64,000 nucleotides of DNA from Clostridia bacterium. Lineage in GTDB: Bacteria; Bacillota; Clostridia; TANB77; CAG-465. Shown one piece after another: positions 51,590 to 64,000 of this stretch. The position numbers were made by a program, and so were the translations under genes. The stretch is taken from contig JAZUNZ010000018.1 of the NCBI GenBank assembly GCA_045604405.1, positions 69,519 through 133,518 of the forward strand, read 5' to 3'. Every line of letters starts with the position of its first letter. Within the stretch, counting starts at the first letter, position 1. The notes under the pieces were generated by a model. That model ran no database searches. It had not been told where the DNA came from and saw only the letters and a list, made by a program, of their open reading frames with translations.

Positions 51590-53344
<1,755 letters not shown>

Positions 53345-53364
53345 CTAAAAATCTAATAAAATTT

Positions 53365-54907
<1,543 letters not shown>

Positions 54908-54953
54908 TTAAATATCCTTTCTTGCAGGTAGCAAGAAGCGACCAAAGGGAGCT

Positions 54954-54993
54954 GTTACATAACTTTCTTCGAAAGTATGTAACCCACTATGAC
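54954..54993 (-). other. candidate oriT / nick region
   Basis: The minus strand reads GTCATAGTGGGTTACATACTTTCGAAGAAAGTTATGTAAC. This is a 13-bp hairpin next to an ATAGTG(G/T)G-TTA core that resembles the pMV158-type oriT as I recall it. It lies directly upstream of mob. Confidence 0.45.
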
Positions 54994-55558
54994 ACTTTCA
55001 AAACTTCGTTTTGCAAAGATGTCGTGGGCTCCTAGCGGAGTGCTCATAAATTATCTAATCTTGCGATAGATAATTTATGTTTGGCTTCGCCAAATCAAAA
55101 TAATATTTTCATCTCCATTCAAATATTATTTTGACTACTGAAAAATTTTTTGCATACCTGCATAAAATTTTTTCAGTATCTTCTTGCTATGCTTCGTAAG
55201 AATATAGAGCAATACCTATATAGTCTTTTTTAGCATAACAAAAAGACCCATTAGGCACAACAAATAAAACTACTAATATTGCATTTTTTTGCAAAGTAGT
55301 GAATTTTATTTGAAACATGCTAATCGGTCTTAACCACTGCTGGACATTTTACAAACAATTCTTCTAAACCAGCCAAATATTTTTCACCGCATTGGGTTAA
55401 TAAGTTTCCTACAAATCTTAATTTTCATTTTTGGAGAAAGATAGAAAATAGTTTATTGTATCCCTTACTAACCAGTGTTTCGTGTCTATTAATTTTTCAG
55501 TGTACTATAAAATACATCTATTATATATCATCTTTTTATGTAAATGTCAACGAAATAA

Positions 55559-55587
55559 TTGAATTTTATGTTAAATTGTGATAAAAT
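55559..55587 (+). promoter_or_regulatory. candidate promoter of the cargo operon
   Basis: TTGAAT, 17-nt spacer, TAAAAT with TGA extension. About 190 nt upstream of the first start codon. Confidence 0.3.
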
Positions 55588-55774
55588 AGTTACGTAATTT
55601 CTATGATTTACCAATATTCTATCGTTTTTTAGTAAAATCATTACGATTATTGGGATAATTATAAATTTAAATAATAAGGAGGTTTTGTTTAAAGTTTTTT
55701 ATTTTTTTATTAATTGAATAACAAAGGTAATTTGAACTAATTTAACAACAGTAATTAGCACAAGGAGGGCTAGT

Positions 55775-56674
55775 ATGAAACAGGATTGTATTTTAATTGC
55801 CACTTTACCATCACTTAACAATATGGAAAAAGTGCAGAGAGTTTTTGAAAATCCTCATATTTCTGAGGTACGGTTCAATACAGGAGTGCAAACTGCTTAC
55901 TCTATAGAAGAAACTCTTGAAATGCTGAAAAAGCTATCCATAAAGCATAACAAAAAGCTTTGGATAGATATCAAAGGCAGACAATTAAGAGTTACCAAAT
56001 GGGCTGATCCTTTATACTCTTGTATAGAGTTAAGCCACAGAGTACAGGTTTTGTATCCTGCACAGATTTACTTTCGCAATGGTGATAGAGTAAACATTAC
56101 TCACATCAAAGATGGCAACAAGCTGTTTGTAGACCCGTTACCACGACAGGCTTTGGGAGCAGGACAATCTGTTAATATTATTGCCAAAGACATTGAAGTT
56201 GATGGCTATTTAACAGAGAAAGACAAGCAGTATTTAAGAGCTTGTAGAAAACTGGATTTGACCTATATAATGGCTTCTTTTGTAGAGACTTTTGATGACT
56301 TGGCACAAATTCTTCATATTTTGCCTAATGCTCAAATAGTATCGAAAATTGAGTCGTTAAAAGGAATGTCCTTTATTTCTCAGTACAATGTCCCTAATCT
56401 GATGGCTGCAAGAGATGATTTATATCTGCAGTCTGGACAAAATTACAGTATGCTGAATCACTTAAAGACTATCATCGAAAGAGATAGTGGAGCGATTTGT
56501 GCATCTAAAATTTTCTTGTCGTTAGAGAAGAGAGAAACTGTCGATTTTGCAGACTTTGCAGACTTGGAATTAATGTATAACATGGGGTATAGAAAATTCA
56601 TGTTATGCGACAATGTATGCAATTATAGTTTTGCAAAAGCAATACAAGCATGGGAGGAATTTATCAATGGATAG
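55775..56674 (+). CDS. pyruvate-kinase-like TIM-barrel phosphotransferase (barrel only, no C-terminal domain)
   Basis: AAGGAGGG RBS. Aligns by eye with PK motifs: RFNTG (RxNxSHG), WIDIKGRQLRV (DTKGPEIR), TEKD, IVSKIES (SKIEN), MAARDDLY (MVARGDLG). Confidence 0.7.
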   Translation: MKQDCILIATLPSLNNMEKVQRVFENPHISEVRFNTGVQTAYSIEETLEMLKKLSIKHNKKLWIDIKGRQLRVTKWADPLYSCIELSHRVQVLYPAQIYFRNGDRVNITHIKDGNKLFVDPLPRQALGAGQSVNIIAKDIEVDGYLTEKDKQYLRACRKLDLTYIMASFVETFDDLAQILHILPNAQIVSKIESLKGMSFISQYNVPNLMAARDDLYLQSGQNYSMLNHLKTIIERDSGAICASKIFLSLEKRETVDFADFADLELMYNMGYRKFMLCDNVCNYSFAKAIQAWEEFING

Positions 56675-58127
56675 TTTAATTTTATGCGGTATGCAGTTTG
56701 GAGATGAGGGAAAAGGAACTTTTGTTGATTACCTGGCACATGAAAAGAATATTGATTGTGTTGTTCGGTACAATGGTGGTTCACAAGCATCTCATACTGT
56801 AATCACACCTTCAGCGGTTGTTCATAAGTTTAGCCAGCTTGGTTCAGGTATGTTTTTGGAAAAATGCCATACATACTTAACAGAAAATATGGTAATAAAC
56901 TTGGACAATCTTCTCATTGAAATGGAAGTCTTTTCAAATAAAACTGGAATCTCAATTCCAGAATTAATGGATAGAATCCATATTCACGAAAATTGTTTTG
57001 TTGTAACACCGTATCATAAGCTGATTAATAAACTTAGAGAATTCTCTAAAGGAGCTAATCGTAGAGGAACGGTGGGAACAGGTGTAAGCGAAGTTAAATA
57101 CTTACTTTCTGAACCAAAGTGTTTTCCGTATGAACGACCTCTTGGATTGCAAGTAAAGGAGATTTTTAATCCTTATAGCAATAATCCAACTATAGGCAGA
57201 TTGGAAGCACTTCAGAATTATGTATCTGCATTTTACCAAAGCAACAAAGATGTTATTTGGCAAAATGTTCCTGAAGAAATGAAGGAGGCTTTGGAGAGAG
57301 AAATTTCATTTTTACTTGCACCTAAAGCATTCTTAACTCTTGCTTCAGACTATGCAATAAAATTCAAGCAAGCACCACGAGATGTTAACTTTAATAAATG
57401 TATATATAATGCATATGAGTTGACTCTCAGAAAGAATTGCGTAAGTGCTATATTTGAGGGTTCGCAAGGACTTTTGATTGATGGCACTTATGGAATAAAG
57501 CCAAATACTACTTTTCTTGATACAACAAATCATTTTGCACTTGATATTTCCTATTATAGAGATAATATCACTAAAGTAGGAATAACAAAAGCATTCAATT
57601 CAAGACATGGATTGGGAATATTTCCTACTGAATCATCGTATTTAAGTAGAAACATTTCTGATGATAATCAAGAAGAGTCTTTTTGGAACGGTAAAATTCG
57701 TTTCGGATGGTTTGATGCAGTATTGTTTAGATATGCTCAAAACATTAATCAGGTTGATGAATTATATTTATCTTCTCTTGATAAACTAGATGGTTTTGAA
57801 ACTATCAAAGTATGTAATGAGTATCTCTATAATGGTATTGTTGACGAAAGGTTTGACGAGTTGTTTGCTTATTCTACATCGCCTGATGGCAAGATAACTA
57901 TTACAGACATCAAAGGAAGTGGAGAGGATTTAGGCAAATATTTAGAAAGATGTGTTCCCATTTATCTTTATGTTAGAGGATGGAAATCAGATATATCAAA
58001 TATTTCTGATAAATCACAACTTCCTGAAAAATGCTTAAATTACATTCTTTTATTGGAAGAACTTACAAAACTTCCTATAACAGTTGTATCTGTAGGACCG
58101 ACTAGGAATAATAAAATAAGGATGTGA
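56667..58127 (+). CDS. divergent adenylosuccinate-synthetase (PurA)-family enzyme
   Basis: ATG follows GGGAGGA and overlaps the upstream stop (ATGGATAG). QFGDEGKGTFVD, VVRYNGGSQASHT, GSQGLLID, RFGWFD, VVSVGPTR. Confidence 0.8.
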   Translation: MDSLILCGMQFGDEGKGTFVDYLAHEKNIDCVVRYNGGSQASHTVITPSAVVHKFSQLGSGMFLEKCHTYLTENMVINLDNLLIEMEVFSNKTGISIPELMDRIHIHENCFVVTPYHKLINKLREFSKGANRRGTVGTGVSEVKYLLSEPKCFPYERPLGLQVKEIFNPYSNNPTIGRLEALQNYVSAFYQSNKDVIWQNVPEEMKEALEREISFLLAPKAFLTLASDYAIKFKQAPRDVNFNKCIYNAYELTLRKNCVSAIFEGSQGLLIDGTYGIKPNTTFLDTTNHFALDISYYRDNITKVGITKAFNSRHGLGIFPTESSYLSRNISDDNQEESFWNGKIRFGWFDAVLFRYAQNINQVDELYLSSLDKLDGFETIKVCNEYLYNGIVDERFDELFAYSTSPDGKITITDIKGSGEDLGKYLERCVPIYLYVRGWKSDISNISDKSQLPEKCLNYILLLEELTKLPITVVSVGPTRNNKIRM

Positions 58128-58131
58128 TGGG

Positions 58132-58746
58132 ATGAATGTTCAAGAAGAAATTAGTAAGTATCTGCTAAGTCACGATACAGTAAATGTTGTAATCGCAGGC
58201 ACTACGTGTTCTGGAAAAACAACTTTAGCCAATGAAATTCGGAATCATTTTTCGGATAGATATTCGGTTACACTAGTTGCTCAGGATGATTATTTTAAGA
58301 ATCTTCCTGATATTCCAAGAGTACGAGAAGGATATTTAACTGATTCTATTGAAGCCTTTCATACTATTGAGTTCAAGCACGATGTGCAAAAGTTGCTTAC
58401 AAATGGAGTTGCTACAATGCCGAGATATGACATTGCTACAAACACAAGAGTAAGCAAAAACAAAATAGTAAGGGCTGGTAGGATTAATGTCTTTGAGGGC
58501 TTGCATACAATTCAGCTTTTAGGTGAGTTAGATAACTGTATTAAGATTTTCGTTGATACAGATATCGATATTTGCTTAAAAAGAAGAATTGCAAGAGACA
58601 CATCGAAATTTGGCGTACCTGAAGTAAGAATACGTCAGTATTGGAATGACTGTGTAAAACCTATGTGCGAGAGATTTATCTTTCCGCAAAAGGAAGATGC
58701 AGACATCACCATAGATCGTAAAGGCGGTGAATTTAATGACAGTTAA
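58132..58746 (+). CDS. uridine kinase / phosphoribulokinase-family P-loop nucleoside kinase
   Basis: Walker A IAGTTCSGKTT. DDYF, PRYD, VFEGLH, IFVDTDIDICLKRRIARD match the Udk pattern. Confidence 0.75.
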   Translation: MNVQEEISKYLLSHDTVNVVIAGTTCSGKTTLANEIRNHFSDRYSVTLVAQDDYFKNLPDIPRVREGYLTDSIEAFHTIEFKHDVQKLLTNGVATMPRYDIATNTRVSKNKIVRAGRINVFEGLHTIQLLGELDNCIKIFVDTDIDICLKRRIARDTSKFGVPEVRIRQYWNDCVKPMCERFIFPQKEDADITIDRKGGEFNDS

Positions 58747-59779
58747 GCAAATCTATGAAAAGCTGTTGCAGGCAAAACGACCTATTGAATTCTTTGGTGA
58801 AATGTCTACAGATGATGAGTTAAAAAAAGCATACAAACAATATGCAAAAAAAATTCATCCAGACATTGTACCTGATAAGGATAAATACATTGCAGGTGAA
58901 GCTTTTTCAGTCCTGAATAAATTATACAATTTAGGATTAAGCGAATTAGAGCAAGGTATTTATGGTATCGTTGATCCTGTTCAGATTTACAAGCACATGA
59001 CACCTTTATTTGAAATTACAATAAAAGGTGAATTGTATCAGTTCTATGAGAATGTGTTTGAGGGAGAAGTTGGTTATATTTTTAAGGGAACTTCAGCTAA
59101 TGATATTGTTTACTTGAAAGTGGCAATTGATCCTGATGACAATGATTTGATTAATACTGAATACAATGTGCTTTCTACCTTAAGGCATCAATCACTTCCG
59201 TATGTTGAGCAAAAAATCATGGTAAATGATACAAATGCTATTCTTATGCGTGAAGTAAAAGGTGTAACAATGCCCGAATTAATGGGGCAATACGCAAGAG
59301 GAGTTCCTGCTGAACATGTTATGTGGATGTTGGAAAGACTTTTGAGTGTTGTAGGCTATTTACATTCAAACCGTGTAGTACATGGAAATATAAAACCTGA
59401 AAATATCATTATTAACAAAGATAATCATAATGTATCGTTGTTAGGATTTTCGTTTTGTATTCCAAATGCTAATACTTCGGAAGCTCAGTATAAGATCATA
59501 AATGATTTTTATACAGCTCCTGAGGTAAAGAAGACTGCTAGAGTCTTACCATCTTCGGATGTTTATTCTATAGGTAAGATTGCAATTAAACTTTTAGGAG
59601 GTGACGTTGTTAGTAACGGAATGCCGATTTCTGTAGATGCGAGAGTTCGAGCATTTATCAGAAAAATGGTAAGTAGTACCCCATCTGATAGACCAGATGA
59701 TGCATGGAAACTTTGGAGTGAGCTTGCAAAGCTCAGAACTGAAGTTTTTGGAACCCAAAGATTCAAAAAAATAGATTAA
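58736..59779 (+). CDS. J-domain protein fused to a Hanks-type (pseudo)kinase domain
   Basis: J domain: DDELKKAYKQYAKKIHPD...FSVLNKLY. Kinase fold: VYLKVAI, HGNIKPENIII (HRD Asp -> Asn), LLGFSF (DFG Asp absent), TAPE, DVYSIGK. The start may be GTG at 58727. Confidence 0.75.
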   Translation: MTVKQIYEKLLQAKRPIEFFGEMSTDDELKKAYKQYAKKIHPDIVPDKDKYIAGEAFSVLNKLYNLGLSELEQGIYGIVDPVQIYKHMTPLFEITIKGELYQFYENVFEGEVGYIFKGTSANDIVYLKVAIDPDDNDLINTEYNVLSTLRHQSLPYVEQKIMVNDTNAILMREVKGVTMPELMGQYARGVPAEHVMWMLERLLSVVGYLHSNRVVHGNIKPENIIINKDNHNVSLLGFSFCIPNANTSEAQYKIINDFYTAPEVKKTARVLPSSDVYSIGKIAIKLLGGDVVSNGMPISVDARVRAFIRKMVSSTPSDRPDDAWKLWSELAKLRTEVFGTQRFKKID

Positions 59780-59792
59780 GGAGGATTTTATC

Positions 59793-60758
59793 ATGGGTGG
59801 TTCTAGTTATGACAGAGACGTTTACGAAGAAAGCTCCAGCTCGGGCTGGGGAAGTTCTTACGGCAGTAGTTTTGGGACAAGTTCTGAATCTGCAAAGAAG
59901 TTTACAAGCACTACTTTGCATAGTTCGATGAATCCCAACGGCAAAATCTTGAAGAGCAACTCTAAGTCACCTATTATCGTAGTGCTTGACGTGACTGGCT
60001 CTAATATTGATTTTGCAAGAGTAGTTTACGACAAATTACCGATGTTTTACGGACAGATTGAGCAGAAAGGTTATCTGGAAGACTTCGAGATTTCTTTCTG
60101 TGCAGTGGGTGATGCATATCACGATGAATATCCGTTGCAGATTGGTGACTTCGCAAAAGGCATTGAGCTTGATTCTTGGCTTGAGAAAGTTGTCCTTGAA
60201 GGTGGCGGTGGTGCATTTGGAGAAGAATCCTATGAGCTTGCTGCATATTATCTGCTTAAAAATGCGGAATTCGAAAAAGGAGCTAAGCCTATTATCTTCT
60301 TTATTGGAGATGAAAAGCCGTATCCTACTGTGGATCGTTCGCAGGCAGAGAAATTTGGAATTGAATTTTTCCAGAGTGTAGAACCTTTTGGAGAGCTTCG
60401 GAAAAAAGTTAATGATAACGTATTTCTGTTGCTTAACAAAGCTTGCGGAAAATACTTCAAAGATGATATCACATCTTGCTGGGAAAAGCTTTTAGCACCT
60501 GAGCACGTGATTAAAATCAGCGAAGAAAAAGCAATTATCGACTTGATGTTGGGAGTTATTTCGATGGTTTCTTCGGCAAGAACTCTTGAAACATACAAAG
60601 TTGATATGCTTGACAGAGGTCAGACACAGGCAAGAATCGAAGGTGTTTCGAAATCCCTTGCAGGATTGTCGACTGCTCTTGTTCCTGTTAAGGTTACTGG
60701 AGCTATTGCAAAAACTGCAAGTGATAAGAAGAGCACTCAGAAAGGAAAAAGACTTTAA
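59793..60758 (+). CDS. von Willebrand factor A (vWA)-like protein with Ser/Gly-rich N-terminus
   Basis: AAGGAGGA RBS. IIVVLDVTGSN (DxTxS MIDAS-like), GGGG...ES, IFFIGDEKP. Called by architecture. Confidence 0.6.
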   Translation: MGGSSYDRDVYEESSSSGWGSSYGSSFGTSSESAKKFTSTTLHSSMNPNGKILKSNSKSPIIVVLDVTGSNIDFARVVYDKLPMFYGQIEQKGYLEDFEISFCAVGDAYHDEYPLQIGDFAKGIELDSWLEKVVLEGGGGAFGEESYELAAYYLLKNAEFEKGAKPIIFFIGDEKPYPTVDRSQAEKFGIEFFQSVEPFGELRKKVNDNVFLLLNKACGKYFKDDITSCWEKLLAPEHVIKISEEKAIIDLMLGVISMVSSARTLETYKVDMLDRGQTQARIEGVSKSLAGLSTALVPVKVTGAIAKTASDKKSTQKGKRL

Positions 60759-60787
60759 TCAAAACAATTATTAATAATTTATGATTA

Positions 60788-60821
60788 GCACAAGGCACAC
60801 TAGATTTAGTGTGCCTTTGTG
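60788..60821. terminator. strong hairpin after the cargo operon
   Basis: GCACAAGGCACACTA-gatt-TAGTGTGCCTTGTGC (15-bp perfect stem), between the convergent vWA and tnpV genes. T tail is weak. Confidence 0.55.
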
Positions 60822-60831
60822 CTTGTAAATT

Positions 60832-61194
60832 CTAATTATAAATATATCTTTCAAAAATTATTTCTTCCACAGAACTTTTTATATTATTCATTTTTTGTAC
60901 CCATTCCAGTTGATTATTAGCTTTTAATTCCTCTGTTATATTTTCTTTTTCTGCAAATTGTTTCATTAAAAGTTCAAATTGCTTTTGACATTCTATATCA
61001 ATATTATATAAATGTTCATCTAATTTATTATCCATAAACAAAATAATATATTCGGCTTTTTTATGATTTTTTAAATAATTCAATCTCATTCTTCCATATT
61101 TACCCAAATGATAATTTTTAAATTTATTTTCTTCAAGCTTTAAGTTTGGTAAATAATAATCTCCAACTTTGTTATATGTAATTTTATTATTCAT
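60832..61194 (-). CDS. tnpV: TnpV-family transposon protein
   Basis: ATG at 61194 follows AGGAGGA. YYLPNL...GKYGRMRLNYL...ITEELKANNQLEWVQKMNNI matches the TnpV pattern of Tn4451-type elements. Confidence 0.7.
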   Translation of the reverse strand: MNNKITYNKVGDYYLPNLKLEENKFKNYHLGKYGRMRLNYLKNHKKAEYIILFMDNKLDEHLYNIDIECQKQFELLMKQFAEKENITEELKANNQLEWVQKMNNIKSSVEEIIFERYIYN

Positions 61195-61401
61195 TTCAAA
61201 AATCCTCCTAAAATTTAATTTCACTACTTTTAGAACTATAAATTTATATCTGTTTTGCTGTCTAAAATTTAAAGTGTACTTAACTTAAGTCTACTGGGTT
61301 AGGACATATGACACAGTCAAAGTCGCTTCTAAAGTATTGAATTTTTAACATAAATATAGTATGATATACACACAATTTAATAATAGAAAGTGGGGATAAG
61401 T

Positions 61402-62340: not shown

Positions 62341-62820
62341 TTATTCCCATTTTGTCATGGTATAATATTTTGTTAATGCTATATTAATGTTATTCCAATC
62401 GTTTAAAGTAATTTTTGTTAATTTGCCTTTTGTTCTATGAGGATTAATTATTCTTAACTTACTTATATTTTTAAGTTGTTCTATTAAAACCGTTGAATTA
62501 TGATTTTCTAAATCTATATGATACCATCTTGTATCATTCATTCTTTCAGAAGTTAAAGGTAATATCGTACAAATAGGAGAATTTCTTTTTGTTTTTACAA
62601 CTAATACAGGTCTAATTTTATTTTGTTCACTACCAATATTTATTCCTAAATTGCACCAATAAATATAATTACTTGTTATAGGAAAGCTAGGAATATCTTT
62701 TTTAAATTTCATATTAGCTTTATCTTTAGTCCAAGTAGCATATTCAATAGCACTAGATTCATCTATATCACTTAAAATATCTATTGTTTCATTAAATTGT
62801 TTATTTATTTCTTTGTTCAT
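62341..62820 (-). CDS. MazF/PemK-family toxin-like protein with a ~55-aa N-terminal extension
   Basis: IYWCNLGINIGSEQNKIRPVLVV...ILPLTSE matches the PemK core. No SD-like sequence upstream, and no adjacent small ORF. Confidence 0.6.
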   Translation of the reverse strand: MNKEINKQFNETIDILSDIDESSAIEYATWTKDKANMKFKKDIPSFPITSNYIYWCNLGINIGSEQNKIRPVLVVKTKRNSPICTILPLTSERMNDTRWYHIDLENHNSTVLIEQLKNISKLRIINPHRTKGKLTKITLNDWNNINIALTKYYTMTKWE

Positions 62821-63035: not shown

Positions 63036-64000
63036 TTATTTGTTTCTTAATTCGTTATACAAGCTAATAACAAAAGCATTTATTTCATCAGACTTTGTTT
63101 CTACATCTTTCAGAAGCAAGAACTGATTTAAAAATCTGTCTTTATTATGAGTTTTGTGTTTGATTTTGAAGTAAACATCGTTGTTGATATAGTCCGTCAA
63201 AAATCTTAAAGCGAGCTCATAGGTAAGAATTTTTATTGACAGCCCTATATATTTTACCTCTTCATAAGTTAAGAAGTTTGCCATTTCTTCCAAATAACCC
63301 TTAAGATACGACTTTGTAAGTTCCAAGTTCAAGAATATCTTGTCTGGATCTGTTTCATCTTCAAAACAGTTGGAACACGCAGAACGTATTCCGTCGCCGA
63401 TATCAAACAAGATGGAACCAGGCATTACGGTATCCAGGTCGATAACAGCGATACCTTCGTTGCTTGTAGAACTCATAAGCACATTGTTAAGCTTTGTGTC
63501 GTTATGAGTAACTCTTACAGGGATGGTTTTGCCCATGCTGTTCCAGATAACAGAATACTCTTTTATCTTTGAAATCAAATAAATGATTTCGTGCGGATTC
63601 TCAAAGGCTCTATTTGTAACACCATTTTCAATGGCTGTTAATAAATCTTGGAATCTCTTGGGAGTATTGTGGAAATTAGGAATAGTTTCGGCAAGAAGAT
63701 TTACAGGGAAGTCGCTTAAGAGCTTATGAAAAAAGCCAAAACATTTTCCTGCGTGATAAGCTACCAAGTTTGGATTATCACATTCGCCAAAATTGTTATA
63801 TGAAATACAGGGATCTATATATTCATATACTCTGTAGTATTCTTTTTCGCAATCTGCGTTAGTGTACGTGTACATTAAATTGCCTTCGCGCGTTCGAATA
63901 AAGGTAAGAGTCTGGTAGGTCTTATCCGGAATAATATCCAGCTTAGCTTTGATATGTTGAGTTATAAGCCCGATATTTTTCATAACAAGGTAAGGTTCTT
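63036..64000 (-). CDS. N-acetylhexosamine 1-kinase-like phosphotransferase (APH/NahK family), 5' end outside window
   Basis: IPNFHNTPKRF, VRVTHNDTKLNNVLM, VIDLDTVMPGSILFDIGD. The frame stays open beyond ATG 63983 to the window edge. Confidence 0.75.
   Translation of the reverse strand, partial: EPYLVMKNIGLITQHIKAKLDIIPDKTYQTLTFIRTREGNLMYTYTNADCEKEYYRVYEYIDPCISYNNFGECDNPNLVAYHAGKCFGFFHKLLSDFPVNLLAETIPNFHNTPKRFQDLLTAIENGVTNRAFENPHEIIYLISKIKEYSVIWNSMGKTIPVRVTHNDTKLNNVLMSSTSNEGIAVIDLDTVMPGSILFDIGDGIRSACSNCFEDETDPDKIFLNLELTKSYLKGYLEEMANFLTYEEVKYIGLSIKILTYELALRFLTDYINNDVYFKIKHKTHNKDRFLNQFLLLKDVETKSDEINAFVISLYNELRNK

Follow-up and report, generated by a model that had tools for sequence, protein, structure and literature searches.

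A PurA-like enzyme with a predicted rebuilt amine pocket and its vWA-fold partner form the core of a mobile gene module

What might an enzyme of the adenylosuccinate synthetase (PurA) fold produce if the sites that should hold aspartate and the nucleotide no longer resemble those of PurA? This question is raised by a gene at 56667..58127 (+) of a 64,000-nucleotide stretch of DNA from a Clostridia bacterium (contig JAZUNZ010000018.1, positions 69,519 to 133,518; hereafter the window), which encodes a PurA-like protein of 486 aa, the subject of this analysis, and is the second of five tightly packed genes on the same strand. An initial annotation, made from the letters of the window only, had suggested that the protein keeps the phosphoryl-activation chemistry of PurA and changes the nucleotide and/or the incoming amine, and this suggestion gains support from active-site residues, from equivalog scores, from the separate clade that the protein joins and from its non-purine gene neighbours. 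The gene module in which the enzyme resides, which was absent from the initial annotation, is more informative than the enzyme motifs alone, and its invariant core is the PurA-like enzyme together with a protein of the von Willebrand factor A (vWA) fold.

The longest open reading frame (ORF) around the gene spans 56613..58127 (+; 504 codons). The start at 56667, which the initial annotation had used, is preferred over 56613, as a GGGAGGA Shine–Dalgarno sequence lies 8 nt 5' of it and the closest homologues are themselves 486 aa long, with alignments that cover 100% of the protein. The ATG overlaps the stop codon of the upstream pyruvate kinase (PK)-like gene by 8 bp, and the two genes appear to be translationally coupled. 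A scan for promoters and terminators was uninformative, with fewer matches than in shuffled sequence. Pfam PF00709 matches the protein end to end (252.5 bits, residues 6-483), PurA chains of the PDB match it at 1.8e-42, and homologues at 46-92% identity to it form more than 120 clusters. An AlphaFold model built from 59 family sequences reached a mean confidence (pLDDT) of 90.9, and Foldseek aligned this model to the PurA structures of E. coli, B. anthracis and H. pylori with TM scores of ~0.8 and E ~1e-31, and to PurZ/DgsS structures with E ~1e-12 only. Because of these Pfam, PDB, homologue and structure matches, we conclude that the ORF is a genuine full-length gene of the PurA fold and no chance ORF. 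A tblastn search of phages and plasmids found no close homologue of the window protein; its matches were canonical PurA (24-29% identity) and a clade of mycobacteriophage proteins.

For the active site, the window protein was aligned with 119 family members, E. coli MG1655 PurA, a Bacillus PurA and phiVC8 PurZ, and the residues were surveyed clade-wide over 48 GTDB loci (all architectures, see below), the phage copies and the 119 family members; residue numbers follow E. coli PurA throughout. The motifs that the initial annotation had called conserved are all in the translation, namely the GDEGKG P-loop (residues 12-17) and GGSQASH (37-43), with D13, K16 and H41 kept, as well as GSQGLLID (265-272) and SVGPTR (475-480). 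Its claim of an altered inosine monophosphate (IMP) loop, GTVGTGVSE (134-142), is borne out by the alignment, which shows T129V, R131T, G134S and P135E. It had also regarded the aspartate-binding loop as replaced, in the region that reads FWNGKIRFGWFD (339-350), and had named a conserved loop in a careful alignment as a ground for refutation; the alignment shows the opposite, as the loop has T300W, T301N and R303K, has lost one residue of the RRRR stretch and has Ile for R305. Only the reading of SSLD (369-372) instead of TKLD as a specificity signal has to be given up: the motif is not diagnostic, as Ser occupies the position of K331 in the Bacillus PurA as well (NSID).

The positions that are kept and those that are replaced form two distinct sets. 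The P-loop G12-G17 (with D13 and K16), H41, Q224, T239, D333 and S414 are kept in the window protein and in essentially all family members; D13, K16, H41, Q224, D333 and S414 are conserved in at least 117 of 119 family members, and D13, K16, H41, Q224, T239 and D333 do not vary in any architecture or phage copy. V273 is replaced by His in 118/119 family members and in 100% of the sequences across architectures and phage copies; T300 is Trp, Tyr or Phe throughout the same range, and T301 is Asn or Gln in every locus except one (L033, Val). R303 is variable and R305 hydrophobic in the family, and the RRRR stretch is shortened by one residue in every member, with most of its Arg residues lost. 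We take T300, T301, R303, R305 and V273 to be the site for L-aspartate and hadacidin in E. coli PurA, as known from structures and mutagenesis of the Honzatko and Fromm laboratories. The residues that hold the 5'-phosphate of IMP in the E. coli enzyme are N38, T129, T239 and R143', and three of these four (N38, T129, R143) are replaced, T239 alone being kept: N38 is Gln or His in all aligned loci (Gln in the window protein; the copy of the Vibrio phage TDDLMA, which is outside the residue alignment, keeps Asn), T129 is mostly Val or Cys, and R143 is never Arg in the clade, the position being Pro or variable. Further replaced positions in the family are G40 (Ser), R131 (Thr), G134 (Ser), P135 (Glu), S240 (mostly aromatic, F/Y/H) and D418 (Thr), and the residues that replace the aspartate pocket and the three 5'-phosphate ligands are conserved in their turn. 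The changes V273 to His, N38Q, loss of R143 and G40S had not been noticed in the initial annotation. Because the conserved and the replaced residues can be mapped onto the known sites of E. coli PurA, we predict an intact phosphoryl-transfer machinery, a rebuilt amine pocket and a 5'-phosphate site that is mostly rebuilt as well.

How does the enzyme relate to its canonical relatives? With PurA (EC 6.3.4.4; E. coli 1CG0/1ADE, B. anthracis 4M0G) it shares the fold, the long bacterial-type architecture and the GDEGKG P-loop with the base Asp13 and with Lys16, the acid His41, Gln224, Thr239, the guanine-specific Asp333 and Ser414; it differs in V273H, T300W, T301N, the variable R303, the one-residue deletion, the hydrophobic residue at R305 and the changed N38, T129 and R143, as well as in its non-purine gene context, its obligate vWA partner, its equivalog scores and its separate clade. 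From the shared fold and the shared catalytic and GTP-binding residues, the chemistry is very probably that of PurA, that is, a GTP-dependent O-phosphorylation of a lactam followed by displacement by an amine. The protein stays far below both NCBIfam purA equivalogs (NF002223, 219.9 against a cut-off of 402; TIGR00184, 202.1 against 395.55). In the phylogeny with PurA and PurZ that the initial annotation had proposed, a neighbour-joining tree rooted on PurZ, the module-linked enzymes form one clade (bootstrap 191/200) apart from both PurZ and the canonical PurA clade (183/200); this tree is small, with 8 canonical PurA sequences, and the distinctness of the clade also follows from the shared derived residues, which show the same independently of the tree. 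The enzyme is thus best assigned, on sequence criteria, as a presumably active member of a distinct clade of PurA paralogues and not to the purine-biosynthetic adenylosuccinate synthetases. A second, divergent but bona fide adenylosuccinate synthetase, converting IMP with aspartate and GTP, would agree with the full-length PF00709 match, the identical fold and the annotation of homologues as adenylosuccinate synthetase in their sources, and we nevertheless consider it very improbable, as T300, T301, R303, R305 and V273 are replaced, the scores are about half of the equivalog cut-offs, the clade is separate and the gene context is non-purine. Canonical PurA was rejected as an identity on the aspartate pocket, the 5'-phosphate ligands, the equivalog score and the placement in the tree. 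PurZ/DgsS (phiVC8, S-2L) had been named in the initial annotation as a precedent for repurposed PurA homologues, and as an analogy this stands: PurZ is a homologue of PurA recruited by phages for a new nucleotide substrate, and databases label the phage homologues of our enzyme alike. The protein itself, however, is no PurZ, as it scores 40.8 bits against the cut-off of 300 of the PurZ model NF038379 and has D13 where PurZ has Ser; PurZ is of the short archaeal type and keeps the aspartate-binding and 5'-phosphate ligands, whereas here the opposite set of residues is changed. A PurZ-type enzyme that would convert dGMP and aspartate to a precursor of 2-aminoadenine is a reading to which we give hardly any credence: the label '2-aminooxy adenylosuccinate synthetase' that RefSeq and PHROGs give to the phage copies speaks for it, but beyond the low model score and the kept D13 the enzyme is of the long bacterial type, PurZ is the outgroup of the tree, the aspartate loop is lost, and datZ, mazZ and dpoZ were not found near the phage copies. 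As an identity for the window protein, PurZ was rejected on the NF038379 cut-off, on the missing Ser at D13 and on the length of 486 aa in place of the short architecture. The label itself is carried in RefSeq, GenBank and PHROGs by genes of cluster C mycobacteriophages and a Vibrio phage (L008:2980-4308, L071:5326-6654, L072:5836-6948), and it is probably wrong there, because these genes keep D13, are without the aspartate loop and fall in the vWA-linked clade.

The gene context was surveyed with the vWA-fold protein as the query against one genome per GTDB species, which gave 48 loci, and against IMG/VR, which gave 6 more; the five proteins of the window were mapped onto these loci, and a locus was regarded as testable if its contig extends far enough to show the neighbour. 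In 44/44 of the GTDB loci testable in this way, and in 6/6 from IMG/VR, the vWA gene has the PurA-like gene as its neighbour. Because the gene for a J-domain pseudokinase, described below, is missing from a minority of loci (L043, L049, L053, L059/60, L063 and L072), the invariant core of the module is the PurA-like enzyme plus the vWA protein. The order found in the window (architecture A: PK-like, PurA-like, uridine kinase (Udk)-like, J-kinase, vWA) occurs in Clostridia, Bacilli, Tenericutes-like lineages and Muribaculaceae; architecture B (J-kinase, vWA, PK-like, PurA-like) in Woesearchaeota, Methanosarcinales, Verrucomicrobia, Leptospiraceae, Myxococcales and Spirochaetes; and architecture C (J-kinase, vWA, PurA-like) in Saccharibacteria, Acidimicrobiia and Burkholderiales. 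Architecture C is also carried by about 200 cluster C mycobacteriophages (Bixzunavirus), in which the vWA protein has 32% identity to that of the window (6e-39), the kinase-fold protein has the same J-domain architecture and the PurA-like protein has the unusual motifs NGGSQAGH and EGMWQGKFRQG; PurA-like and vWA neighbours are also present in a Vibrio phage. The five-gene cassette stands in unrelated chromosomal contexts in Clostridia and other metagenome-assembled genomes (MAGs), and an Ignavibacteriales MAG has its first four genes; at the vWA position of this MAG (L003:11049-12023) there are only ORFs of 98 aa and 111 aa, and this may be a decayed copy. The module is thus found in bacteria, archaea and large phages, and its patchy spread across domains and its presence in phages and on a transposon favour a conflict-related or otherwise selectable accessory function.

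The vWA-fold protein of the window (321 aa; 59793..60758, +) contains a motif resembling the metal ion-dependent adhesion site (MIDAS), LDVTGSN, and a FIGDE strand. It has no Pfam, NCBIfam or PADLOC match, and no Pfam vWA model reached threshold; Foldseek related it to integrin beta-I and vWF-A domains (8e-7). In the MIDAS-like DxTxS motif, D66-V-T68-G-S70 is invariant. The family is large, with 1,622 clusters at 50% identity for E<=1e-3 and 1,206 clusters for E<=1e-10. In PHROGs the protein matches phrog_2971, annotated as 'unknown function', and the PurA-like enzyme is grouped with PurZ. The AlphaFold model has a pLDDT of 83.5 overall and below 50 in both tails, which are predicted to be disordered. 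These tails, MGGSSYDRDVY... at the N-terminus and ...KGKRL at the C-terminus in the window, are conserved: 54/54 vWA sequences from bacteria, archaea and phages start with MG[GS], after which come motifs of the SYDRDV or SW type and a linker rich in Ser, and most end in [KR][RK][LIV] (KGKRL, TTRL, ADRL) with an LP motif before it. To judge by this conservation, the termini look like docking or substrate peptides; that the C-terminal Arg stands in for the lost R143 of the PurA-like enzyme, or that the N-terminal glycine is an amine acceptor, is speculative.

Several vWA genes depart from the common form. The vWA gene of the Mycobacterium phage CharlieB (L071:3285-5066), 593 aa and annotated as 'HNH endonuclease', exemplifies a form seen in some cluster C phages with an intein-like insertion of ~250 aa, from a Cys after KGY to ...SSN|C, immediately ahead of the conserved IFIGDE strand, with weak matches to Hint modules; as a rule, inteins insert at sites that are critical for function. 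The vWA proteins of Myxococcales and Spirochaetes (L049, L050, L051, L053) carry an extra beta-rich insert of ~150 aa with the motif SLVWN..DLDLHV, and a Methanosarcinales locus (L040:8777-11020) has two tandem vWA paralogues and a possible internal second copy of the N-terminal motif.

The other three genes of the cassette encode two putative metabolic enzymes and a putative pseudokinase. The PK-like protein (299 aa; 55775..56674, +; Pfam PK barrel 5.6e-12) is a minimal enzyme that consists of the TIM barrel with a reduced lid, without the full PK architecture of B lid and C-terminal domain, and its scores for the NCBIfam pyruvate kinase models are far under the cut-offs (TIGR01064, 46 against 306.4). 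Alignment to the yeast and E. coli enzymes showed the catalytic residues of the barrel to be present, including the K-I-E and A-R-x-D-L motifs; 39/39 family members have R33, N35, D65, K67, R69, K191, E193, R213 and D215, and 37/39 have R72. The Udk-like nucleoside kinase (204 aa; 58132..58746, +; Pfam PRK 5e-20) is below the cut-offs of both NCBIfam udk equivalogs (112.8 against 180 and 108.4 against 220.3); its best PDB matches are the uridine-cytidine kinases of T. thermophilus and human (2e-18), and K29 of the P-loop, R152, R155 and D156 are kept in 31/31 sequences and D52 in 30/31. An assignment as nicotinamide riboside kinase was considered and found unsupported, the match to NRK1 reaching 1e-4 only and covering the P-loop region. 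The fourth gene encodes a protein of 350 aa with a J domain and a protein kinase fold (58727..59779, +; Pfam DnaJ and Pkinase), whose DnaJ match is at 30.6 against a cut-off of 27.8 and whose HPD motif is kept in at least 80% of the members. The Asp of the kinase HRD motif is missing in 46/46 family members (HG[N/A/S/G/L]); in the window, HGN replaces HRD in an alignment with CDKL5 and GFS replaces DFG, the Asp of which is lost in the window's clade. The protein is, therefore, a predicted pseudokinase that should still recruit DnaK. With the TerY-P triad (the vWA protein TerY, a PP2C phosphatase and a Ser/Thr kinase) and the MoxR/vWA activases (CbbQO), the module has in common a cytoplasmic vWA protein paired with a kinase-fold protein or a chaperone ATPase, a pairing that serves in those systems as a sensing or remodelling unit on an enzyme or effector; here, however, there is no PP2C, the kinase fold is without its catalytic Asp, the ATPase would be indirect, through the J domain that would recruit DnaK, and the partner is a PurA paralogue.

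A further lead comes from neighbouring genes outside the cassette. An NrtR-type regulator (Nudix plus NrtR winged helix) adjoins the cassette in 10 loci of at least three lineages and in varied positions (L023:11028-11705, L024:5404-6078, L030, L031, L032, L034, L036, L046:12616-13290(-), L052 and L055). Of the six Bacilli and Tenericutes-like loci, five have it on the same strand at a distance of 1-24 bp upstream, and the remaining one, L031, has it 455 bp upstream with a 145-aa ORF between NrtR and the PK-like gene; it is downstream in Muribaculaceae, and upstream (L052), downstream (L046) or divergent (L055) in Saccharibacteria. The 64-kb window itself does not contain an NrtR gene. NrtR proteins are ADP-ribose-responsive repressors of NAD metabolism. 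In Leptospiraceae, a stand-alone Nudix gene is directly upstream in one locus (L044:8170-8643) and a homologous one overlaps the start of the J-kinase ORF in another (L045); a Muribaculaceae locus encodes an AAA_28 (NadR-kinase-like) protein (L023:11629-12852), and the Vibrio phage TDDLMA has a NADAR gene two genes upstream (L072:3318-3968). On a 139-kb viral contig (L058:3706-6904), an AAA ATPase gene is directly upstream of the J-kinase gene and a weakly matching TelA-like protein is encoded two genes further up. We treat the NrtR, Nudix and NADAR neighbours as a lead towards a connection with NAD or ADP-ribose. The phage NAD+ reconstitution pathways NARP1, NARP2 and NARP3 are likewise small metabolic cassettes, which restore a nucleotide cofactor and are carried by phages and mobile elements, and the ADP-ribose-sensing NrtR suggests a related theme, but their enzymes (Adps/Namat, Nampt/Nmnat and PnuC/NadR) showed no homology to the module; NARP3, considered separately as a relative, was rejected, as it consists of PnuC and NadR.

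Taken together, we propose a GTP-dependent activation of a lactam nucleobase that is followed by displacement by an amine other than aspartate, within a nucleotide- or NAD-centred mobile module, and for this proposal we see about as much reason for belief as for doubt. The PurA-like enzyme would transfer phosphate from GTP to the exocyclic oxygen of a lactam nucleobase, in all likelihood that of a 6-oxopurine nucleotide. The phosphate would then be displaced by a nucleophile other than L-aspartate, for which ammonia, a neutral amine resembling glycine and the amine of a peptide are candidates, and the result would be an aminated or N6-substituted nucleotide. The Udk-like kinase would supply the nucleoside monophosphate, and the PK-like enzyme would use phosphoenolpyruvate either to regenerate GTP from GDP or to lift the product to the triphosphate, while the vWA protein and the J-domain pseudokinase may act as a regulatory or scaffolding unit that recruits the DnaK (Hsp70) of the host. 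The whole would serve as a horizontally mobile, nucleotide- or NAD-centred module in phage–host conflict or in salvage, with NrtR-type, ADP-ribose-sensing control in several lineages; possible roles are the restoration or salvage of pools, which in phages would be a counter-defence, the synthesis of a modified signal or toxic nucleotide, and protein modification. A number of observations weigh against this proposal. The 5'-phosphate site is remodelled, and because of this the substrate may be other than IMP, with a nucleoside, a di- or triphosphate, a dinucleotide or a pyrimidine as possible candidates; the Udk-like partner resembles pyrimidine nucleoside kinases and is a poor fit with a purine substrate. 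The J-pseudokinase, missing from some loci, is not strictly required, and the NrtR link is limited to about a fifth of the loci. The flanks in MAGs are mostly housekeeping genes (rny, SAHH, G6PD, clpC, ffh), without the signature of a defence island, and a scan of six proteins with PADLOC-DB v2 gave no match for the PurA-like, PK-like and vWA proteins; in the same scan, generic kinase models matched the pseudokinase, and the Udk-like protein had weak matches confined to the P-loop (E ~5e-4 to 1e-2).

Other readings differ from this proposal in the amine or in the base. If the nucleophile were ammonia, the enzyme could aminate IMP or an inosine-containing nucleotide directly and restore AMP, or the adenine of ATP or NAD, independently of PurB; together with the Udk-like and PK-like enzymes, this would rebuild adenine pools, as salvage in hosts with reduced genomes or as a phage counter to defences that act by deamination or by depletion of NAD or ATP. 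We consider this unlikely, if far from absurd. The exchange of the ligands of the aspartate carboxylates for an aromatic residue and a universal His, a possible general base, would suit it, as would the presence of the module in large lytic phages and in lineages with small genomes (Saccharibacteria, Woesearchaeota, Tenericutes-like Bacilli), the NrtR, Nudix, NADAR and NadR-like neighbours and the housekeeping flanks; on the other hand, it leaves the obligatory vWA protein with its conserved termini and the usual J-domain pseudokinase unexplained, the phage NAD+ pathways NARP1-3 use unrelated enzymes, and changed 5'-phosphate ligands would not be expected if the substrate were still IMP. A peptide amine leads to another reading, protein purinylation, in which removal of Met frees the alpha-amino group of the vWA protein's invariant N-terminal glycine to serve as the amine, and the vWA protein then carries an N6-linked AMP. 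The MG[GS] start of all 54 vWA proteins examined, set on a disordered Ser-rich tether, the obligate linkage of the two genes and the loss of the residues that bind the carboxylates of aspartate, as expected with a peptide amine, point in this direction; to these we add that the PurA inhibitor hadacidin is a glycine analogue. Purinylation is, however, a purely inferential reading, no protein-modifying enzyme of the PurA fold is known, the possible internal motif copy in the Methanosarcinales locus would fit a docking motif rather than a free N-terminus, and the conserved termini could equally be peptides that bind the pseudokinase or DnaK, and we judge it quite unlikely.

In a broader version of the purinylation idea, the enzyme would spend GTP to join C6 of a purine nucleotide to the invariant glycine at the N-terminus of the vWA protein, or to some other amine that is not aspartate, and so make a nucleotide of a kind not described before. 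Such a new nucleotide–protein system, which the J-pseudokinase would link to Hsp70 and which phages, transposons and cells would use in conflicts over nucleotides or NAD, seems to us rather unlikely. The base, too, could be a different one: with a pyrimidine substrate, the O4 of UMP delivered by the Udk-like kinase would be phosphorylated, amination would follow, and the product would be CMP or an N4-substituted CMP. The Udk-like partner, being closest to uridine-cytidine kinases, and the remodelled 5'-phosphate residues and bulkier pocket (N38Q, S240 aromatic, T300W), as a smaller base would need, are in line with such a substrate, but architectures B and C and the phage copies are without a Udk-like gene, the two residues with which PurA reads the purine, Q224 and D13, do not vary, and the PurA fold offers no precedent, so that we regard a pyrimidine as decidedly improbable. 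Of all these readings, we prefer the one in which a lactam nucleobase, probably a 6-oxopurine, is activated for attack by an amine other than aspartate.

A search of full-text literature, including papers on jumbo phages and on NTP conflict systems, found no description of the module within the literature searched; the module as a whole appears to be undescribed, and the partnership of a PurA paralogue with a vWA protein and a chaperone-recruiting pseudokinase appears to be without a described counterpart. Work on PurZ has reportedly revealed that phages acquired a new DNA base through a single shift in the specificity of a PurA homologue. The clade described here would be a second offshoot of PurA, much larger and more widely spread than PurZ, and the conserved way in which its amine pocket is rebuilt points to a nucleotide product not described so far. 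Because the enzymes are small and soluble and copies reside in genetically tractable phages of M. smegmatis, the system lends itself to direct tests, and results would correct the PurZ label that is widespread on these genes.

In the window, a Tn4451-like mobilisable transposon (51590..61300) carries the five genes as its cargo. Two genes on the minus strand make up the left backbone of this element (51590..54907): 51590..53254 encodes a large serine recombinase that contains DUF4368, and 53621..54907 encodes a MobV relaxase. The right-hand backbone gene encodes TnpV (60832..61224, -; Pfam PF14198 1.4e-38). The cassette is in the cargo slot, because it lies between recombinase plus MobV and TnpV, where the backbone elsewhere carries resistance genes. 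A 200-bp stretch just beyond mob (55000..55200) has 91% identity to IncHI2 plasmids of Klebsiella, Citrobacter, Enterobacter and Salmonella, and this stretch of transposon backbone was the sole match in a megablast of the cassette against plasmids; Klebsiella pD610-HI2 is the one plasmid that was examined, and there aac(6')-Ie/aph(2'')-Ia is borne by the same backbone of recombinase, TnpW and Mob. That such a backbone carries antibiotic-resistance genes elsewhere suggests a selectable function for the cargo. Just to the right of the element are a gene for a PemK/MazF-type toxin (62341..62820, -) and a gene for a phosphotransferase of the APH family (63036..63983, -).

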